The notes beneath the pieces were generated by a model that saw nothing but the letters and a program-made list of their open reading frames with translations, was not told where the DNA came from and searched no databases. Below, piece after piece: positions 13,201-27,228 of a DNA stretch of 64,000 bases. Where the stretch lies: positions 1 to 64,000 of the IMG/VR virus record IMGVR_UViG_3300028800_000081. One strand, given 5' to 3'. Every line of letters starts with the position of its first letter. The first letter of the stretch is position 1. This stretch comes from a virus. Both the position numbers and the translations under genes were made by a program.

Positions 13201-13314
13201 TGATGCGGTCCAGTAAGGAGCGCAGAGAGACATGAGGGGATGGTGGATTGTGCCGTGCGTTATTGGCGGCGCTGGAATGTGGGCGCTTGCAATCATGGCT
13301 GCGATGGGAGCGCT

Positions 13315-13950
13315 ATGATGGTCACAATGTTGAAGCCTATCACACCCGGCATTCTCTCCGTCTTGGTCAAGGGCGGCGACATCCATCTGCTCGCCGATCT
13401 CGCGCCGGAACTTGAAGCGCAGCTCGCGCCAGCCGGGATCGACACGCTGCTCCGCAAGGCTCACTTTCTGGCGCAAGCGGCTTACGAGAGCGGCTACTTT
13501 TCGCGACTTGACGAGAACCTCAATTATTCGGCTGCGCACATCGTCGAACTCTACGGCAAGACTCATCCCGACGTGGCACGGCGCGCGAATGTGCTGGCCC
13601 ATGATCCAAAGGCGTTCGGAAGCGCCATCTATGCCAACCGGTTCGGGAACGGCAATGAGGCGAGCGGAGACGGGTATCGGTTCCGCGGGCGCGGCATTCT
13701 GATGACAACTTTCCGCGACAACTATCGCGCGCAAGGCGTGGAGGACGACCCCGATTCCGTCGCCACGCCGGCGGGCGCGGTCAAGACGGCAATCGCCTAC
13801 TGGAATTCGCGCAAGTGCAACGAGGCGGCCGACGCCGACAACTGCCCGCGCGTGACGTTCCTGATCAACGGCGGGTCGAACGGCCTCTCGGATCGATCTA
13901 TCCTGAAGGCGCGGGCGATGGAATTGCTTGCAGACGGACAGAGCACATGA
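13315..13950 (+). CDS. GH19 endolysin
   Basis: AHFLAQAAYES, ENLNYS, GDGYRFRGRG, INGGSNGLSDR. Confidence 0.9.
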   Translation: MMVTMLKPITPGILSVLVKGGDIHLLADLAPELEAQLAPAGIDTLLRKAHFLAQAAYESGYFSRLDENLNYSAAHIVELYGKTHPDVARRANVLAHDPKAFGSAIYANRFGNGNEASGDGYRFRGRGILMTTFRDNYRAQGVEDDPDSVATPAGAVKTAIAYWNSRKCNEAADADNCPRVTFLINGGSNGLSDRSILKARAMELLADGQST

Positions 13951-16140: not shown

Positions 16141-16359
16141 GTGTCATGGCTCTCCTACATATGGGCTGCGATCAAGGCGATATTCAGCGGCTATGTCGGG
16201 GCGAAGCAGCAAGTCGGGGTGGATCAAGGCCGTGCCGAAGCCGAGCGTGACATGAGCGTAGCATCTGCAAAGACCGAATCGCGTGTCGCACAAGCCGAAG
16301 TAGACGCTCCCCATAGCATTACTGAGGCGGAGAGGAGGGCGGAAGATGGGACGCTGTGA
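16141..16359 (+). CDS. i-spanin (Rz-like) candidate
   Basis: N-terminal hydrophobic segment plus short coiled coil; stop overlaps the GTG of the downstream lipoprotein. Confidence 0.55.
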   Translation: MSWLSYIWAAIKAIFSGYVGAKQQVGVDQGRAEAERDMSVASAKTESRVAQAEVDAPHSITEAERRAEDGTL

Positions 16360-16720
16360 GGAAATTTGCTGCGGGCCGGGCTCGAAACCGGCTGTCCCTT
16401 TTGGGGGTGAATTGGGTACTGGGTCTCCGCCAGCAAGGCGGTACATACGTTCCCCAACGGACGGCGACCATTTCCGTGCTTCCTTCAGCACCGCCGCAGC
16501 CCTCGCACTATGCGCCCTCACAGCCTGCTCTACAAGCCCGCCAGTGCCTCCGGTTCAAACGGTATGCCTGCCAATGGCGACCTACTCCCAAGCCGCACAG
16601 ACCGCCCTAGCGAAGGAATGGCGCGCTCTCGACCCCAACAGTCTGACGGCGAGCCGGTTCATTCCTGATTCGATCGCATTGAGGGACAGCAACCGCGCCG
16701 CATGTGGGGCCAAACCGTGA
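16356..16720 (+). CDS. o-spanin (Rz1-like) lipoprotein interrupted by a 125-nt structured insert, or read from ATG 16346 with an extended N-terminus
   Basis: ALALCALTA|CSTSPPVPP lipobox, Pro-rich segment and later cysteines; the MRKF start lies in another frame. Confidence 0.6.
16367..16500 (-). ncRNA. tRNA-like RNA with an enlarged central arm
   Basis: Acceptor GCTGCGG/CCGCAGC-A; D-like arm GTGC-TGAAGGAA-GCAC; T-like arm GCCGG-TTTCGAGC-CCGGC. Confidence 0.6.
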
Positions 16721-16995
16721 CCGCTCGAAAATCTCACAAAGCCTATGACGAGCCAGAGGCAGGGGAATGGGTACGCCCTATCCATAAAGGATACAAACTA
16801 GCGTGTTGCTCGTGCGGGCTCGTTCACAAGATGGACTTTCGTATCGTTCGTGGAAGGGTGCAATTTCGAGTATTCAGCGCGCCTCGGGAAACGGCGGCGA
16901 TACGCAGACGGCCCCACAAGTTCATCCCCAGAGATGTTGCTGAGCAACTGGCCAGCCAGATTCTTCTGATGGAAAAGCGGGCGGCGAAATCATGA
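16717..16995 (+). CDS. Putative Zn-binding phage protein
   Basis: ACCSCGLVH motif; GTGA overlap. Confidence 0.55.
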   Translation: MTARKSHKAYDEPEAGEWVRPIHKGYKLACCSCGLVHKMDFRIVRGRVQFRVFSAPRETAAIRRRPHKFIPRDVAEQLASQILLMEKRAAKS

Positions 16996-17174
16996 AATGG
17001 CCCATGACTCCGAATATTTTCGTAGCCTCAGACGATTTTTGTACGATCTCGAAGGCGACGACGCTCAGCGCAAGGTGCCGCGAAAGCCGAACGGTGAGCT
17101 TCTCTATCCGAGGCGGGAGAGGCTGATTCGCATGTCGCTGGCTTGGCAGAAAAGATATGGGCGGGCGGTGTGAC

Positions 17175-17645
17175 GTGGATAAGACGGCCACAGATTGGAC
17201 GTTTGCCACGCTATTTCATCACGTCGATGAGCGGCTTAACGCGCTCAATGCCAAGATCGACGAACGCGACCGACTTTATTCCGATCTCCGCTCAGCCGAC
17301 AAGGACGCCATCGAAACGGCCTTTCAGGCTCAGAAGGAAGCGATTGCCGCCGCTCTTGCTTCCGCAGATCGTGCCGTCGCCAAGTCTGAGAGCGCGAACG
17401 ACAAGCGGTTCGACGGCGTTAACGAGTTTCGATCCAGTCTCAGCGACGCGGCTTCCAGGATGATGCCGCGCACGGAAACCGAAGCATTGATCCGAGCCCT
17501 GACCGAGAAGATTGCGGAGACGAATTCGCGGCTTGACCGTTCCGAGGGGCACGGCGGCGGGGTGCGGGATACGTTCAACTGGCTCACGGCATTACCTTGG
17601 GTGGCGATAGCGGGGCTACTGCTTTGGATCGCTAGGGGGCACTGA
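17175..17645 (+). CDS. Coiled-coil protein with a C-terminal TM segment
   Basis: Heptad repeats followed by LPWVAIAGLLLWIA. Confidence 0.65.
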   Translation: MDKTATDWTFATLFHHVDERLNALNAKIDERDRLYSDLRSADKDAIETAFQAQKEAIAAALASADRAVAKSESANDKRFDGVNEFRSSLSDAASRMMPRTETEALIRALTEKIAETNSRLDRSEGHGGGVRDTFNWLTALPWVAIAGLLLWIARGH

Positions 17646-18026
17646 ATGAGCGAAGAAACCATAGACCATGAAGCCCGAGGAGGGATAGCCCGTCTGGAGC
17701 AAAAGATCGACGGCGTGCGTTCCTACTTCGATGACAAGCTCAATACATGGACGCAGGGCTACGATGCGCGGCTTACCGGAGGGCTGGCTACCGTCCGGGA
17801 CAATGACGTGCGCAACTCTGCCGGCATGATCGCCATGGAAGGGCGGCTCAATACGAAGATTTCCGAGACTGAAGGCCGCATGATAATCGCGATCAATGAA
17901 GTGAAAGCGGCTGTGTCTAGCGGAAGCACTCGCTTCTGGGATACGTCCACGAAGATTATTCTTTCCTTGGTCGCTGCTATTTTCTCCATTGCCATGCTAT
18001 ACGTGACGCTTGGGAGGCATCCGTGA
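17646..18026 (+). CDS. Coiled-coil protein with a C-terminal TM segment
   Basis: IILSLVAAIFSIAMLYVTL at the C-terminus. Confidence 0.65.
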   Translation: MSEETIDHEARGGIARLEQKIDGVRSYFDDKLNTWTQGYDARLTGGLATVRDNDVRNSAGMIAMEGRLNTKISETEGRMIIAINEVKAAVSSGSTRFWDTSTKIILSLVAAIFSIAMLYVTLGRHP

Positions 18027-18355
18027 GCGACAAGGGCATGACCGCAGAAGGGGCATCGGCCATTAGCAACGTCCAGCTTGTCTTGCCGCCTGAGAGCGCC
18101 AAGAGTCTATTCAACATGCTCATTGCGTCCATGGTTTTCTCGGCTATGGCGTGCCTTCTGGCAGTTGGATCGATTACCTATTCGATAGCGAGAGTGAACG
18201 GACTGAGCGACGAAGTTGGCGCATACAAAACCGACGCAAAGCTGGCGCAATATGACGCGAGCGAGCTTCGCGATACGATCATCCAAGATGGTATCAAAGT
18301 GCCGCTTAGCGCGGCGGAACAGGCCGATGCGGCCAAACTCAGGAGAAAGCCATGA
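18023..18355 (+). CDS. Membrane protein
   Basis: Central TM segment; GGAGG SD. Confidence 0.6.
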   Translation: MSDKGMTAEGASAISNVQLVLPPESAKSLFNMLIASMVFSAMACLLAVGSITYSIARVNGLSDEVGAYKTDAKLAQYDASELRDTIIQDGIKVPLSAAEQADAAKLRRKP

Positions 18356-18546
18356 CCAAGCACACTCACCCCCCCGATGGCGGTAGCGTTATAATCATAA
18401 CTGGCCAGAAAGCACCGGGCGATCTCGTAAGCGAAAATCTCTCGTGCGCCGAACTCGGAACGATCATCAATTCGATCCCTGCCAATTCCGCGAACGCCGC
18501 GCTGATTGCGAAGCTGACCGCTGTGCAAAGTGCAGCAGGCTGCTAA
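18352..18546 (+). CDS. Hypothetical protein
   Basis: AGGAG SD; overlaps the upstream stop. Confidence 0.55.
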   Translation: MTKHTHPPDGGSVIIITGQKAPGDLVSENLSCAELGTIINSIPANSANAALIAKLTAVQSAAGC

Positions 18547-18876
18547 ATGCCTCCCGCTCTGAAACGTATCGGAGAGGTAGCGGCCACCGTCATGGCGATT
18601 GGTGGCCTGCTATCGGGCTTCGTGTGGATCATGGGAGGCTCTGTCCCTCCGTGGGTGACTACCGCTGCAGGACAATCAATTCTCCAGCGGCTCGACCATG
18701 AGGACGCCTTCCAGAACTCGATTGCGCTGGAAGTTCTGGACGAGAAGCTCGACCACGCTTGGGAGCGTCACAGAGCGCACATAGACGATCCGGGAGCGGT
18801 GGACGATATCCGAAGGCTCAATCGCGAGATCAAAAAAATCGACCCGACAGAGACGCTCGCGCCGCCTCCTGATTAG
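18547..18876 (+). CDS. Membrane protein
   Basis: N-terminal TM segment; abuts the previous stop. Confidence 0.6.
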   Translation: MPPALKRIGEVAATVMAIGGLLSGFVWIMGGSVPPWVTTAAGQSILQRLDHEDAFQNSIALEVLDEKLDHAWERHRAHIDDPGAVDDIRRLNREIKKIDPTETLAPPPD

Positions 18877-18952
18877 TCCGCCGTTCCGTATCTGCCTCAG
18901 GATGGACCATAATCACACTTGCCACCGCCATGGCTGCGGGGTAGAGTTGCGT

Positions 18953-19229
18953 GCTGCGGCGGCGTTGGAAGCCATCACACCGAGGGAAACTGTCGCGGGT
19001 GGCAACGGACGAAACGCTGGCCTTGATCCGCAAGTAGCCGAAGCCGCTGTAATGCGGCACCGTGAGGGTTATCGCTTCGAAGGCGCAAGTATCGGCTGTT
19101 AGGAAAGTCGCCTACGGCGTCGGATTGCCTCGAAGATGAAAGTCCCGCAGGCGAAGTCGGGTAGCGACAAACGGTGGAGCGGTCTAGAACGCCCTTCCGT
19201 CAGCCAGAGGTGGCGGCTGGCCCGCAGCG
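18953..19229 (+). ncRNA. Large tRNA-like structured RNA
   Basis: GCTGCGG...CCGCAGC terminal stem with GCCAG/CTGGC hairpin stacked on it; multi-hairpin interior. Confidence 0.55.
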
Positions 19230-19309
19230 TCGGGAAGTATCAGGTTGACGTAGCATGAGCGATTCGAATACTAAATCTGGTGACAGGCCGTCACCGCTAG
19301 AAATCGAAG

Positions 19310-19996
19310 TCACCCCCGAGATGATCGCCGCCGGGAGCGATGCCGTTTGGTCCCCGCTTGGCGGCTCTGACTTGCATCCTTCTTTTGACCCGGACGCTCT
19401 GGCCAAGCGGGTCTATCTGGCAATGGCTGCAGTTGCGTCCCTTTCCAAAACAAATCGACGACGCGGGCGATAGTCACGGCGTGCTTGTGCAGCGCGGCGG
19501 CACGCTCCCGATAAACGCGGAACTCTTTTAGGAGATTTGCCCTTTTTAAGGACTTCGCCAACGGATTGCCAAAAATGTCTTTCGCGACAAACTCTCCGGG
19601 GTCGCCAACCAAAAACGCAACTGGCGAGTGTGCCGCTGCATCGCGACGCGGCCCCAATTTGTCGGCGCTATCCACAAGCCAAAGAATATCGGCCCACAAA
19701 GCAGTCGCAAATTTGCTCGCGTTTGGGTTTTTTACGCCGCCCTCGTGGATTGAATGTTCCGGGTTGAACATGAAGGACGCCAACTCGCGCAACATATTCC
19801 GCTGAAACCTATCGTTCGGAATAGCGTGCCAGATCGCGCGGCCCAAATCATGATTGCTATGGCAAACCAATGACGCGAAAAGAGAGCCAAGCCGCTCTTG
19901 AAGCTGATTCCATTCTCGAAGCAGAAACCCGATTTCAAGCGCGTATGGCCGAAACGCCTTGTCCCATTCCTGCTCTGGCAGAATCTCGTCCGTCAC
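19310..19996 (-). CDS. IS passenger, helical hypothetical protein (possibly HEPN-like)
   Basis: 228 aa; RDAAAH fits an Rx4H motif. Confidence 0.55.
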   Translation of the reverse strand: MTDEILPEQEWDKAFRPYALEIGFLLREWNQLQERLGSLFASLVCHSNHDLGRAIWHAIPNDRFQRNMLRELASFMFNPEHSIHEGGVKNPNASKFATALWADILWLVDSADKLGPRRDAAAHSPVAFLVGDPGEFVAKDIFGNPLAKSLKRANLLKEFRVYRERAAALHKHAVTIARVVDLFWKGTQLQPLPDRPAWPERPGQKKDASQSRQAGTKRHRSRRRSSRG

Positions 19997-23940: not shown

Positions 23941-24373
23941 CTCTCTCCGTCCTTTGCCCGCTGACGACCTTCGTCAACGCGCTCCCAATATCGCTGTTCT
24001 TCGTCATACTGGCGCTGACGCTCTGTCTCGTTCGCAAGCTGTACCGCCTTCAGATACCAGCGATGTCCGCACATGCCGCACGTCGCCCTGCCGGTGAGAA
24101 TGTCGGTCTCGTATTCATCGTGGTCGCAGTCCTCGGCGTCGTCAAAATCGTTGCTCATCTCACGCCGCCCGGCGCGGAGAGGGGCGCATATCGTCTAGGC
24201 CACCAATCGCAGGATGTGAACCCGCGCCTGACCGCCCCGAACAGCTTGTCGCATGCTGGCCCGTTACGGCAATCCGCGCACGTCTTGCCGGGCGGCAATT
24301 TCATTTCGGCGGCGTAGTCTGGCTCGCCCATCACACACCCTCCCCGCGCTCTGGCTTGTCCATGGTTATCCGG

Positions 24374-24895
24374 TTAGCGGACAGGGGGGATAGTCGTTGA
24401 CGCTAGCAGTTCGGCGCGAATCTCCATCCAGAGCTTGCCGAGCATGTTCTGGCCTTCACGATACGGACCCCAACCCCAGAAGTTGTCGCGCCACGAATTT
24501 TCGATCAGTGTCCGCTCGCCCGTCGCCAATAGCTTGCGCCTAACATATTCGTGTTGAATGGTTTTGGCACGAAGGATGTCGCGCATGACGCCAATCTTCA
24601 CCGTATCCCAATCACGGCGCTGGAAGCTCTTGTTTTCCTGTGCAAGCTTGAACGCCTCATGGGCGGAAGCGGCGAAGCGGATATTGTCGGCAATGAGCCA
24701 CGCTTGCGCCCCGATGGCTGGGCTTTGTCCTTCCTGTCCGGTAGCGAACCTTTCCCAATGATATGCCGCCTCTGATGTATCGAAATCCCTTCCGCGCCAC
24801 TGAATGCGGAAAGCTGAGAAATTCGATAGGACATAGAAATCCTGTTCGTAGAAAAACACCTGCGTCTCATTGTCGAGTCCGTGAATTTCCATCAC
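24374..24895 (-). CDS. NADAR family (YbiA-like) protein
   Basis: LSNF, TSEAAY, RRDWD, LLATG, IENS, WG, GQNMLGKLWMEIR. Confidence 0.9.
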   Translation of the reverse strand: MMEIHGLDNETQVFFYEQDFYVLSNFSAFRIQWRGRDFDTSEAAYHWERFATGQEGQSPAIGAQAWLIADNIRFAASAHEAFKLAQENKSFQRRDWDTVKIGVMRDILRAKTIQHEYVRRKLLATGERTLIENSWRDNFWGWGPYREGQNMLGKLWMEIRAELLASTTIPPVR

Positions 24896-24929
24896 CTACT
24901 CTCCTTCTGTGTCATCGTATCGGTATCAG

Positions 24930-25250
24930 CGCGCTCTGGCTTGGGCTCGACCGTGGAGCGTGGCGTGGCGGTATATCATGGCAAGCCGCTCCGCAATTTT
25001 GCGAAATCCATTGTCGCAAAAAGCATCGCTTCGTCGAGTTGCTTGATAACGGATAACATCATGGCAACGTCGTCATATAGTAGTTTTGGCCCGGACCAAC
25101 GCCCCGTTGCTTTCCATTGCTGAACAGAGATTTCTAGCTGTTGAAGTCGTTCGCGCTGGCGATCTCTCGCGTCATCCATTGTTGCGATGTTTGCTCCCAT
25201 CACCCCTCTCCCGTTGCGGAATGCTCGACGCGCTCTGGCTTGGGCTCGAC
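24930..25250. repeat. 22-bp direct repeat CGCGCTCTGGCTTGGGCTCGAC
   Basis: Copies at 24930-24951 and 25229-25250; 14-bp partial copy at 24345-24358. Confidence 0.8.
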
Positions 25251-26473
25251 TGTACGGGCTCGGATGGCGGCGGCGATACCATCAGCAATGGCGTACCCTC
25301 GCAGGAAAATTGGGCCTTCGCGCTTTGGAAAGTCAGGCTTTTCCATTTCGGCATTCTCGGCTGCTGCCCACTCGTCCGCAATCTTCGCTGCTTCCTCGAA
25401 TGCCTCCGCTCTGATACGCGCACTCTCTCCCCCTGCCCCGTCTGCGCCGTGTGGCCGTACCTTTTCGAGCCAGAATTGAACGTGGCCGAACGCTTTTTTG
25501 TCGTATCCCTGCGCACACTCCGCAGGATGATCGTGAGCGTAGCCCCATGCCAGATGAAATTCCGATATGCCTGCCCCGTCTGCGGTGGGCTGGAGGCGGG
25601 AGAGGGCGGCGAATTCGCAAAGCAAATCGACAACCGCGACCGACGATATTGAGGCCGCGTCTCTGTAGCCTTTCGAAACAAGGAATTGTGCGGCCTTGGA
25701 TACCTGTTCAGTCAGCGCAACGTCGCCGGGCGGACGGTCGGTCATGGGTTCACCTTTAGTAACTGGAAACGCGGGCATACGTGGTCTGAGCGCACAGGCA
25801 TATAGCCGTAAAAGTCGCTCTCCAGATCGCACGTCATTTGACGCTTGTTCATTGTGTATCCTTTGTGGGCGCAGTAACCGCAACAGGCACCATCGGAACG
25901 TAACTGCGCAACCATGGCGTCTCGGAGAGTTTTTGTAATTTTCGCTCGCAAGCGAAGACGCGCCTTTCTAGCGGGGCTCAGTTTACTCATTCTCCATCTC
26001 GCTTGGTGACAGCGGCGGCGCGGATCGCGTCTCTAGTCTTTTCGACGCCAAGCCAAAAAGCGTGCGTGGATTCTTCGGAGCCGCTTTCTTCATCGGGATA
26101 TTTCGGCATGGCCCTATCAACCGCCCGCTCAAGCCTCTCCACCTTATCAAGGAGCGATTCTACTGTCGCGTCGCCGTTGAACATCTTGCGGATTGTAGTG
26201 GTGTCTGGGGGCGTGGTCATAGTCCTAAATCCTTGGCATCTTCATTCGCGACGAAGCCGTTGCAGCGGTCGCAGATGCGGCCTTCATCGCCCATGGTATC
26301 CGTATATGGTCGCCAATCATGGACGCAGGCGTCGAAATGTGCGCGCCACTCCTTCACGCAAGCCTCGCAGAACCAGCAATCCTCCATCATCGTCATTGTT
26401 TCTATGGGAAACGCTTTCTCGCAATGCTCACATTGCTGCATGTCTGCCAGCGTCACGGGTTTGGTCGGGTGGG

Positions 26474-26866
26474 TCATTGGGCGGCCTCATAGAATTTTGA
26501 CTTCGGGGTCTTGCCGTCCTGGTCGCTTTCCCAAGCGGCAAACATGCGTTCAACATCGGCACTCGGCAGAAATTCGACAAGCGCGTCGCATTCGGTGCAC
26601 ATGCCGTCCCACATCAAATCGTAGGCGCGCTGGAGCATAGCGTCCCTCAGTTCGTCCGTAGACCGGCTACTCGGAAGCATATTGAACTTGGTACGCTGCC
26701 GGCCGATCCGCCGCTCTTCGTCATCAAGGAACCGGCCCTCCGCTTTCGTTGATGCTTTCCATTTTGCGTTCTCGCGCAGATCCGCAATCAGCTTTGGATT
26801 GCCGCCTTCCTGCTCAAGCCGCGCGGCAGCGACCATGAGCATGTGAATGCGAGAGCGCGGCGTCAT
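26474..26866 (-). CDS. Hypothetical early protein
   Basis: 130 aa, overlapping starts and stops in the leftward operon. Confidence 0.5.
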   Translation of the reverse strand: MTPRSRIHMLMVAAARLEQEGGNPKLIADLRENAKWKASTKAEGRFLDDEERRIGRQRTKFNMLPSSRSTDELRDAMLQRAYDLMWDGMCTECDALVEFLPSADVERMFAAWESDQDGKTPKSKFYEAAQ

Positions 26867-27228
26867 CGTTTCCTCATCTTCCTACTGCCGAAATGCTTGA
26901 AGCCTTCCGGCGCCTTGGCGAACTTGCGCGTCGGGATCTTGCGCTTCGGCCCCTGCTTCGTGACGCCGGTAATGCGATCGATCTTCGCGAGGGCTTGGAC
27001 GTCGCGCTTCGATTTCGGCTTGTGCGCCGCCTTCAGAACCGGCCGGAAGTTCCTATACTCGTGCTTGCCTCCGAGCGCGTCGGCATGGATGTGATCGATC
27101 TCCACCGGATCACCTGGGCGCATAGGTTCGCCGGAGATCGCACACTTCAGCGGCTCACCAAACTGCATCTCGACGCGATACAGGAGCGTGTCGATTATCT
27201 CGCGCTTGGTGAAGGGCTTGCGGCTCAT
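26863..27228 (-). CDS. HNH endonuclease
   Basis: CAISG..EIDHIHADALGGKH..N. Confidence 0.8.
   Translation of the reverse strand: MSRKPFTKREIIDTLLYRVEMQFGEPLKCAISGEPMRPGDPVEIDHIHADALGGKHEYRNFRPVLKAAHKPKSKRDVQALAKIDRITGVTKQGPKRKIPTRKFAKAPEGFKHFGSRKMRKR

Follow-up and report, generated by a model that had tools for sequence, protein, structure and literature searches.

Phage immunity RNAs such as C4 of P1/P7 and CI of P4 are cut by RNase P and combine a constant folded frame with variable recognition loops. In the engineered tRNA scaffold, the acceptor stem and the T and D arms are kept, an insert takes the place of the anticodon stem-loop, and the chimera of the Ponchon/Dardel group is described as being processed and protected like tRNA (PMC3753655). 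Natural RNAs also contain partial tRNAs. tmRNA (see also PMC3929946) has an anticodon-less tRNA top half with a large variable body between its 5′ and 3′ parts. The YrlA-type bacterial Y RNAs are non-coding RNAs with mimics of the T and D arms, occur in phages too, and include one RNA that is cut by RNase P and receives CCA, according to PMC4201824. The same source gives their order as T arm, closed acceptor-like hairpin, and D arm, with both RNA ends at the anticodon side and the Rsr/Ro60 gene adjoining. GOLLD and ROOL are presented in a recent preprint as structured phage and prophage RNAs of unknown function that often lie near tRNA islands; GOLLD members often exceed 800 nt and sometimes carry tRNAs in a linker (bioRxiv 10.1101/2024.12.08.627333). 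Finally, Fremin et al. (2023) report 10,006 candidate RNAs from IMG/VR (PMC10690425).

Here, we compare these systems with two elements, el1 and el2, from a single virus, and with the family to which they belong.

Two elements with shared ends in one phage genome

The window, that is, the whole stretch of DNA analyzed, covers the opening 64 kb of an IMG/VR virus record of 73,132 bp that is rated complete. An initial annotation of this DNA had reported that an element at 18953-19229 shares its start and its 3′ end with a companion at 16367-16500, and the letters are indeed found at those positions. Specifically, el2 spans 18953-19228 on the plus strand, starts with GCTGCGGCGG, and ends with CA-GCCAG-AGGTGGCGG-CTGGC-CCGCAGC. 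Element el1 spans 16368-16500 on the minus strand, with the same ten-mer at its start and the end CA-GCCGG-TTTCGAGC-CCGGC-CCGCAGC. The companion is correct as to the shared ends and needs amending as to orientation: with el1 on the minus strand and el2 on the plus strand, the elements are mutually inverted and point outwards. The ten-mer GCTGCGGCGG has exactly two exact matches in the window, at 18953-18962 (+) and 16491-16500 (-); with one mismatch allowed, 24 matches occur against 18.0 ± 4.9 expected, which is unremarkable alone. The 3′ pattern CAGCCRG-N(7-10)-CYGGCCCGCAGC matches twice in the window, at 19201-19228 (+) and 16368-16394 (-), and in none of 100 shuffles, and the rest of the 73-kb record holds no further match. 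Between the two copies, GCCAG/CTGGC in el2 versus GCCGG/CCGGC in el1 is a true double-sided compensatory change, G-C to A-U, just as annotated.

The elements flank a 2.45-kb block of small membrane-protein genes downstream of the endolysin gene at 13240-13950. Between them, at 17157-18876 (+), lie five back-to-back small genes, each with a single predicted membrane span, for which Pfam and PHROG gave no function. Near el1, a spanin-like ORF has a Pro-rich start and a signal peptide with no ATG, GTG, or TTG nearby. Its frame is open backwards through el1, on the opposite strand, to an ATG at 16346, and its match to phrog_26778 covers residues 54-118 only. At 16374-16403 (+), the complement of the third hairpin of el1 followed by GTCCCTTTTG makes a terminator-like site just after the gene at 16141-16359.

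Known RNA genes were sought in the whole window. ARAGORN finds neither a tRNA nor a tmRNA, and Rfam 15 gives no match at gathering scores and assigns no family at E ≤ 10, in keeping with the earlier remark that el2 could not be placed in an Rfam family. The JUMPstart RNA model scores 18.8 bits at 18358-18390 (+), with a gathering score of 35 and E of 1.2, probably a chance hit. Searches with blastn of el1 and el2 against INPHARED phages return no match. As for antisense targets in the phage itself, the longest complement is 12 nt for each element, which we estimate to be about the chance level.

Contigs of related phages, from runs X1 and X4, carry other variants of the family at the el1 site (16357-16360), directly after the conserved gene at 16141-16359. 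In run X4, a contig also shows a stretch about 80% like el2, to which another upstream sequence is joined at 18945. On account of these differing variants and this upstream joint, el1 and el2 look like exchangeable modules. Their features are collected in Table 1.

Table 1. Coordinates of el1, el2, and associated features in the window
Feature	Position	Strand	Remark
el1 closing stem (P1)	16494-16500 with 16368-16374	-	Canonical class A copy
el1 second hairpin (P2), GUGCU-GAAGGA-AGCAC	16476-16491	-	
el1 insert	16395-16475	-	
el1 CA	16393-16394	-	
el1 third hairpin (P3), GCCGG-UUUCGAGC-CCGGC	16375-16392	-	
Small lipoprotein-like, spanin-like gene with lipobox LTAC	16505-16720	+	From translation
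Promoter-like site, TTGCCA-17 nt-TAGAGT	18919-18947	+	9/12 consensus positions
el2 closing stem (P1), 5′ strand GCUGCGG	18953-18959	+	Pairs with 19222-19228
el2 linker CG (family J1/2)	18960-18961	+	
el2 candidate second helix, GCGUU/AACGC	18962-19017 (strands 18962-18966, 19013-19017)	+	R2 half-match
el2 variable insert (cargo)	19018-19200	+	
el2 CA and third hairpin (P3), GCCAG / loop AGGUGGCGG / CUGGC	19201-19221	+	Stem fits family
el2 closing stem (P1), 3′ strand CCGCAGC	19222-19228	+	

A family with a constant frame and a variable insert

Motif scans of IMG/VR yield at least 213 distinct copies built on one frame: a 7-bp closing stem (P1), CG, a 5-bp hairpin (P2), a variable insert of 21-176 nt, and a 5-bp hairpin (P3) that abuts the closing stem. 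In 184 copies the linker reads CG, and in 29 it reads CA. Scanning with the 3′ pattern gave 102 loci among the matches listed; 37 of these have GCTGCGG within 400 nt upstream, and 25, plus el2 itself, have the shared 5′ motif within 300 nt upstream. The alignment of those copies reads P1, CG, P2 as GCGUG-GAAGGA-CACGC, insert, CA, P3 as GCCGG-UAUCAAGC-CCGGC, and the 3′ strand of P1. A further scan used the P2 motif only, with no constraint on P1 positions 1-5 or on any of the 3′ half, and found at least 120 loci of what we call class A. Among the matches listed, 88 of 118 have a 5-bp hairpin that is immediately followed by a 7-nt strand of perfect complementarity.

The P2 and P3 loops come as matched, co-varying sets. 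In class A (at least 113 copies, 72-227 nt, median 137), P2 loop GAWGGA is coupled with a P3 loop of the UAUCAAGC type. Class B (at least 99 copies, 88-229 nt, median 144), which is as common as class A, joins P2 loop GAAAGCAGA with P3 loop AGUAGCGC/A. The class B 5′ motif scan of IMG/VR found at least 120 loci; among the matches listed, 108 of 121 close, and 70 of these 108 have P3 loop AGUAGCGC or AGUAGCGA. Rarer loop sets exist as well (loci L014, L018, L035, L036, and L050). The idea that the two classes form an obligatory pair is rejected, for a class B copy also occurs in only 1 of 100 class A loci. Some loci hold two copies close together with different inserts (L185 5274-5577, L153 5232-5544, L060, and L183 6612-8358); in L183 there is one copy of each loop class.

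The closing stem also varies in length. In about 37 of the 213 copies, it gains another 5-14 covarying pairs and is often preceded by a hairpin. One subfamily has a closing stem of 12-21 bp, often GCCAUCA.../...UGAUGGU, with a short G+C-rich hairpin directly before it (L138, L139, L183, L185, L194, L215, L216, L220, L256, L257, L288, L345, and others).

Pairing and covariation

Evidence for pairing comes from closure of the frame and from covariation. Among the matches listed, the closing stem together with the abutting hairpin closes in 84 of 109 class A copies, against 8 and 3 for two decoy strands, and in 103 of 114 class B copies, against 8 and 8 for decoys. There are 49 distinct closing-stem sequences in class A and 55 in class B. 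For covariation, models R1 (from 36 class A copies) and R2 (from 34 class B copies) each re-aligned the matches in 100 loci detected solely through the 5′ motif. Such alignments are fitted to a model, which favors pairing; the decoy-strand closure test is independent of this fitting. With that proviso, the 95 class A matches have 98.8% of 1560 cells paired, compared with 30-59% when partners are slid by 1-3 columns, and show double-sided changes in 12 of 17 pairs (286 cells); 0 of 500 shuffles reach any of these measures. The 103 class B matches, aligned in the same model-fitted way, have 99.0% of 1690 cells paired, compared with 28-46% when slid, and double-sided changes in 12 of 17 pairs (269 cells).

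Individual positions follow the same trend. The outer three pairs of P1 take all four Watson-Crick types, with GC, AU, UA, or CG at the third pair, and the inner two are almost always G-C. Mismatched R/Y combinations in P2, which the search pattern permits, are absent from class A. Of the sequences with letters at the inner pair of P3, which corresponds to G53-C61 of the tRNA T stem, 87 of 90 in class A and 91 of 96 in class B have G-C. The P1 and P3 columns are adjacent, which places the 7-bp stem directly on the 5-bp hairpin with no spacer, as in tRNA.

Judged from these sequence comparisons, the frame defines a real, large, and structured phage-borne RNA family, predicted to be transcribed. 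Element el1 is a standard member of class A: R1 matches it at full length, over model positions 1-116, with 55.2 bits and E of 2.6e-9. Its fold has a z of -1.81 relative to shuffles. The initial proposal of an RNA family that wraps variable cargo in a tRNA-like frame is supported, with el1 a clear member; the processing or stability role attached to it is a matter of interpretation, to which we return below.

The covariation keeps pairing, G-U pairs included, and so shows that selection acts on a folded single strand. This bears on the notion that the elements work as DNA, the two inverted copies being recombination or inversion sites that flank the 2.45-kb membrane-gene block. The inverted arrangement, the 10 + 27 nt shared by el1 and el2, and the different family variants found in relatives at the el1 site would suit such a function. 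Nevertheless, we judge it very unlikely given the pairing-keeping covariation. In addition, most loci have a single copy, no recombinase is a conserved neighbor, and no inversion joints for 16501-18952 were seen in the contigs, the material surveyed, of related phages.

el2 is an atypical copy

Element el2 has the outer frame of the family: a 7-bp stem ending in two G-C pairs, CG, and, after NA, an abutting 5-bp hairpin. What it lacks is the compact second hairpin, of 5 bp and with a GAWGGA or GAAAGCAGA loop. Instead, the P2 5′ strand GCGUU is followed by GGAAGC, which is near the start of the class B loop, and its partner AACGC lies 46 nt off. The candidate second helix consequently encloses 46 nt, compared with a 6- or 9-nt loop in the family. 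Model R2 chooses this GCGUU/AACGC pairing in a 12-bit half-match, and enforcing it in a family-type fold costs about 7 kcal/mol relative to the free fold. The P3 loop AGGUGGCGG resembles the class B loop AGUAGCGC, yet it is found in no other copy and is neither of the class A UAUCAAGC type nor of the class B AGUAGCGC type.

Neither R1 nor R2 ever matches el2 whole; with filters off, the half-matches reach 10.1-14.2 bits, and at 276 nt el2 may exceed the span of both models, whose longest match seen is 229 nt. Its best local matches, at both of its ends, are class B copies. Judged on these features, el2 is an atypical, divergent copy, unique so far, with class-B-like ends, that keeps the outer frame. 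The earlier designation of el2 as a larger member of the family is therefore upheld for the outer frame and falls short for the compact second hairpin, the loop consensus, the whole-model match, and homologues.

Two further proposals concerned the interior and the 5′ side of el2. The interior had been called multi-branched, and the hairpins named are present in the sequence. The fold of the whole 277 nt, at -113.9 kcal/mol, is no better than that of shuffles (-110.7 ± 5.4 kcal/mol, z -0.59), 53 of 200 of which equal it. On the 5′ side, an alternative strand, GCTGCGGG, had been suggested to switch the pairing. It is present at 18933-18940, in the spacer of the promoter-like site TTGCCA-17-TAGAGT, and so would not be part of an RNA starting at 18953, which argues against the switching role. 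That promoter-like site ends 5 nt ahead of the first G of el2, and transcription from it would begin with the first base of the closing stem. Promoter-like sites are not enriched in the el2 region (2 found versus 1.5 expected); many family members that have the el2 closing stem are preceded by similar -10-like boxes at a distance of 5-8 nt.

Relatives of el2 were sought by several routes. The insert has no similarity outside the frame ends to any of about 490 loci, and ORF 18902-19102, which overlaps el2, has no match in Pfam or PHROG. The pattern of the third-hairpin loop matches twice in IMG/VR, both times by chance; the 5′ 20-mer has 29 matches in JGI metagenomes, all coding or chance; and the 5′ 17-mer has 18 matches in IMG/VR, 0 of them closing. 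Used as a lead to homologues, the neighboring protein 18547-18876 gave one 20-residue match. Taken together, the phage-database and covariance-model searches provide homologues with covariation for the family, el1 included, and none for el2.

It is reasonably possible, though we lean against it, that el2 is a decayed or recombinant class B relic whose frame ends survive around an interior of functionless filler. The loss of the compact second hairpin and of both loop consensus sequences would be expected of a relic, as would a fold no better than shuffles, the failure of either model to match el2 whole, and the lack of a homologue in INPHARED, IMG/VR, or JGI metagenomes (0/2, 0/29, and 0/18 pattern matches real). 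Decay is harder to reconcile with the pairing still seen at all 17 outer-frame positions and with a well-placed promoter-like site. The stretch in the contig of run X4, about 80% alike and with new upstream sequence at 18945, likewise suggests that the unit persists in a relative, and rarer loop classes, noted above, also exist.

Comparison with described RNAs

The family consists of tRNA-like non-coding RNAs of a kind set apart from tRNA, tmRNA, YrlA, GOLLD, and ROOL. Identity with tRNA is rejected: neither ARAGORN nor RF00005 at E ≤ 10 finds a cloverleaf in the window or in a minimal copy of 81 nt, and where an anticodon arm with a 7-nt loop would be, there is the variable insert. tmRNA hallmarks are a G3-U70 wobble and a D-loop analogue. 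Members of the family lack G3-U70, the third pair never being G-U, have a compact D-like hairpin rather than a D-loop analogue, and encode no CCA; with ARAGORN finding no tmRNA, this identity is rejected as well.

The YrlA-type RNAs differ in their order of parts. In the family, a D-like hairpin is followed by the insert and a T-like hairpin, and both RNA ends lie in the acceptor-like stem; on these grounds, YrlA identity is rejected. Clustering of neighbors shows no counterpart to the adjoining Rsr/Ro60 gene, as no family of neighbors reaches beyond 7 of 114 loci. GOLLD and ROOL have folds unrelated to the frame described here, and both have Rfam models, which give no match; hence, they too are rejected. 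C4 and CI differ in that nothing here matches Rfam at E ≤ 10 and no complementary target stands out in this phage, the longest match being 12 nt. In all, Rfam 15 (GOLLD, ROOL, C4, twister, and Y RNA included), run at gathering scores and at E ≤ 10 on the window, 15 loci, and three typical copies, assigns only the tRNAs in or next to three copies. The last hairpin of the Twister-P5 consensus, CCGG-UCcCAAGC-CCGg, comes close to P3 of class A, CCGG-UAUCAAGC-CCGG (noted at L384 2437-2476 (-)); class A copies nevertheless give no match to any twister model at E ≤ 10.

The engineered tRNA scaffold has a similar layout. It is man-made from a real tRNA, whereas the phage family is natural and has 8-nt T-like loops (class A) or unrelated loops (class B). 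A closing stem of 12-21 bp, unlike that of the engineered scaffold, is possible in the family, and tRNA-like processing is predicted for the family rather than demonstrated as for the chimera. The family is absent from Rfam 15 and from the GenBank annotation of the phages that carry it. Our search of the literature found no published description, and the 10,006 IMG/VR candidates of PMC10690425 may include it.

Inserts, flanks, and neighbors

Where a tRNA has its anticodon arm, the family has a lineage-specific insert, in a few cases a whole tRNA. Specifically, the Rfam tRNA model detects a tRNA inside the insert of L034 and L148 (46 and 59.8 bits), ARAGORN finds a tRNA insert in 2 of 212 copies, and a canonical T arm occurs in 5 of 213 inserts, versus 0.1 in shuffles. 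The initial annotation had offered a decoy for anticodon nucleases as a possible function, for which the tRNA-like frame and these tRNA inserts speak. The frame, however, lacks an anticodon arm, its place being the variable part; anticodon-type loops of 7 nt are rare in inserts; and what is conserved is the top half. We accordingly regard a decoy as extremely unlikely and set that proposal aside.

The inserts share nothing family-wide, but they are conserved between related phages. Related-phage inserts show compensating stem changes (pairs L220/L185 and L139/L185), and one insert type is present in both loop classes (L008/L020 and L364). Given the conservation, the compensating changes, and the one type common to both classes, the inserts are under selection.

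tRNA genes accompany some copies. A tRNA lies within 300 nt of 18 of 212 copies, always on the same strand, and within 30 nt of 10; the 208 family loci (1.8 Mb) contain only 47 tRNAs in all. Copies L149, L150, and L376 are examples that have a leader or belong to tRNA arrays. At the start of the element, U at -1 (41%) and G at +1 (46%) are both enriched. At the other end, NCCA directly follows P1 in only 10 of 212 copies, which means that CCA is not encoded. After the closing stem, G is depleted from +2 to +9 (5-13%), and A is favored at +1 and +2. Pairing of this G-poor tail with the insert is rejected: the mean best run is 5.78, versus 5.93 with tails swapped.

No promoter signal at a fixed position is common to the family, and no neighboring protein is conserved, the largest cluster covering 7 of 114 copies; a few copies each lie next to genes for HNH endonuclease, terminase, SSB, or lysozyme. 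Copies are also located before terminators or antisense to neighbors, with 39 of 213 lying opposite to neighbors when ORFs are used as a rough guide. Because 120 of 213 copies are spanned by stop-to-stop frames in DNA this rich in GC, any ORF-based intergenic measure is noisy. These surroundings speak to the possibility that the elements act in cis, as a 5′ stabilizer, processing signal, or antitermination element in the leader of a downstream gene (19255-19473 for el2). The end of el2 is 26 nt before an ATG, and some ORF starts within 200 nt in 99 of 114 class A copies, about 20 of which, counted from the list, are judged convincing by an SD-like motif together with a start at most 40 nt away. 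A leader function is nonetheless unlikely in our estimation: the downstream genes have no family in common, and copies stand in tRNA arrays, before terminators, or antisense, el1 itself being antisense.

Carriers and hosts

Copies are not confined to virus records. In bacterial genome contigs, 29 of 120 motif matches listed close, and about 20 of these were judged to have family-type loops. The sources are Acetobacter, Arenimonas, Janthinobacterium, Pseudorhodoferax, Bordetella, Pantoea, Comamonas, Xanthobacter, and some MAGs, with 1-2 copies in each of five of these genomes. Prophage copies occur in Acetobacter (A. senegalensis), Pantoea, Comamonas, Bordetella, and Xanthobacter. The Pantoea copy is at a prophage locus with a CI-like repressor; blastn with it finds short unannotated matches only, and none in E. 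coli genomes. Among 151 sampled genomes from the class of the Acetobacter host, with 24 candidates scored per genome, at least 2 have a class A match. Two cultured phages, Iodobacter phage PhiPLPE and Caulobacter phage DMCA, have copies that are unannotated in their GenBank records. In phage DMCA (L346, record 24127-27183), whose host is C. vibrioides CB15, the RNA gene, at about 25551-25690 of the record, lies between annotated transposase and integrase genes, with a TATAAA box about 7 nt upstream.

A proposed natural tRNA scaffold

We propose, at what we consider an even chance of being right, that el1 and el2 are genes for small structured RNAs of a large, uncatalogued family and that the frame of this family is a natural tRNA scaffold carrying exchangeable inserts. 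We hold the scaffold mechanism, taken by itself, with less confidence than this statement as a whole, and the reality of the RNA family with more. The constant part would correspond to the top half of a tRNA: a 7-bp closing stem, a T-arm-like hairpin, a 2-nt linker, and a D-arm-like hairpin. We infer that the P2 and P3 loops touch each other as the tRNA elbow does. With such a frame, the cell would treat the transcript as a tRNA: RNase P would cut the 5′ end where a leader or an upstream tRNA is present, the 3′ end would be trimmed, and the RNA would be protected from decay. The insert would be the working part, and the frame would be the carrier that stabilizes and matures it.

A natural scaffold is favored by the combination of the tRNA-like layout, the membership of copies in tRNA arrays, and the enrichment of U(-1) and G(+1). 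Set beside the tRNA pattern of a 7-nt T loop U-U-C-R-A-N-N and GG in the D loop, class A has a T-like loop of 8 nt containing UCRA and a P2 loop containing GG, and class B has other loops, unlike D or T. Several observations weigh against the analogy. P1 stems lengthened by 5-14 pairs are at odds with RNase P cleavage at an acceptor stem of 7 bp, the T-like loop of class A is 8 nt long rather than 7, and no CCA is encoded. Moreover, the minimal 81-nt copy is missed by the Rfam tRNA model at E ≤ 10, and ARAGORN finds no tRNA in it.

In the chief competing reading, the frame itself would be the working part, a mimic of the tRNA top half that binds or soaks up a host factor, with the insert merely a tolerated, fast-evolving arm. 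Candidate factors are RNase P, the CCA-adding enzyme, EF-Tu, and defense toxins that modify tRNA 3′ ends. Loops, linker, and the inner two G-C pairs are near-invariant over more than 200 otherwise unrelated copies whose inserts share nothing, which speaks for a mimic. With no neighbor cluster beyond 7 of 114 copies, the lack of a conserved neighboring protein gene would indicate that the partner comes from the host. We find this alternative rather doubtful, since the inserts, conserved with compensating changes and with one type in both classes, are under selection, and long closing stems and missing CCA are unlike a tRNA 3′ end.

Returning to the natural scaffold, we tentatively extend it to a broader speculation, to which we assign a clearly smaller chance: phages of Proteobacteria may have in common a modular RNA chassis that mimics the tRNA top half, is held together by one of at least two interchangeable loop-loop locks, hijacks the host machinery for tRNA maturation and protection, and displays swappable effectors, whole tRNAs included. 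If so, such a chassis would amount to a new class of phage RNA, with a reach like that of GOLLD and ROOL, that acts as a carrier. Nature's tRNA scaffold would then long predate the engineered one, and one frame would stabilize many small phage RNAs. Element el2 alone, as a single odd copy, is of smaller value. The family, for its part, is abundant and lends itself to studying how tRNA-like shapes are read by RNase P, 3′ trimming, and CCA addition; it also provides a set of unexplored phage RNA inserts and a natural example of two alternative loop-loop locks.
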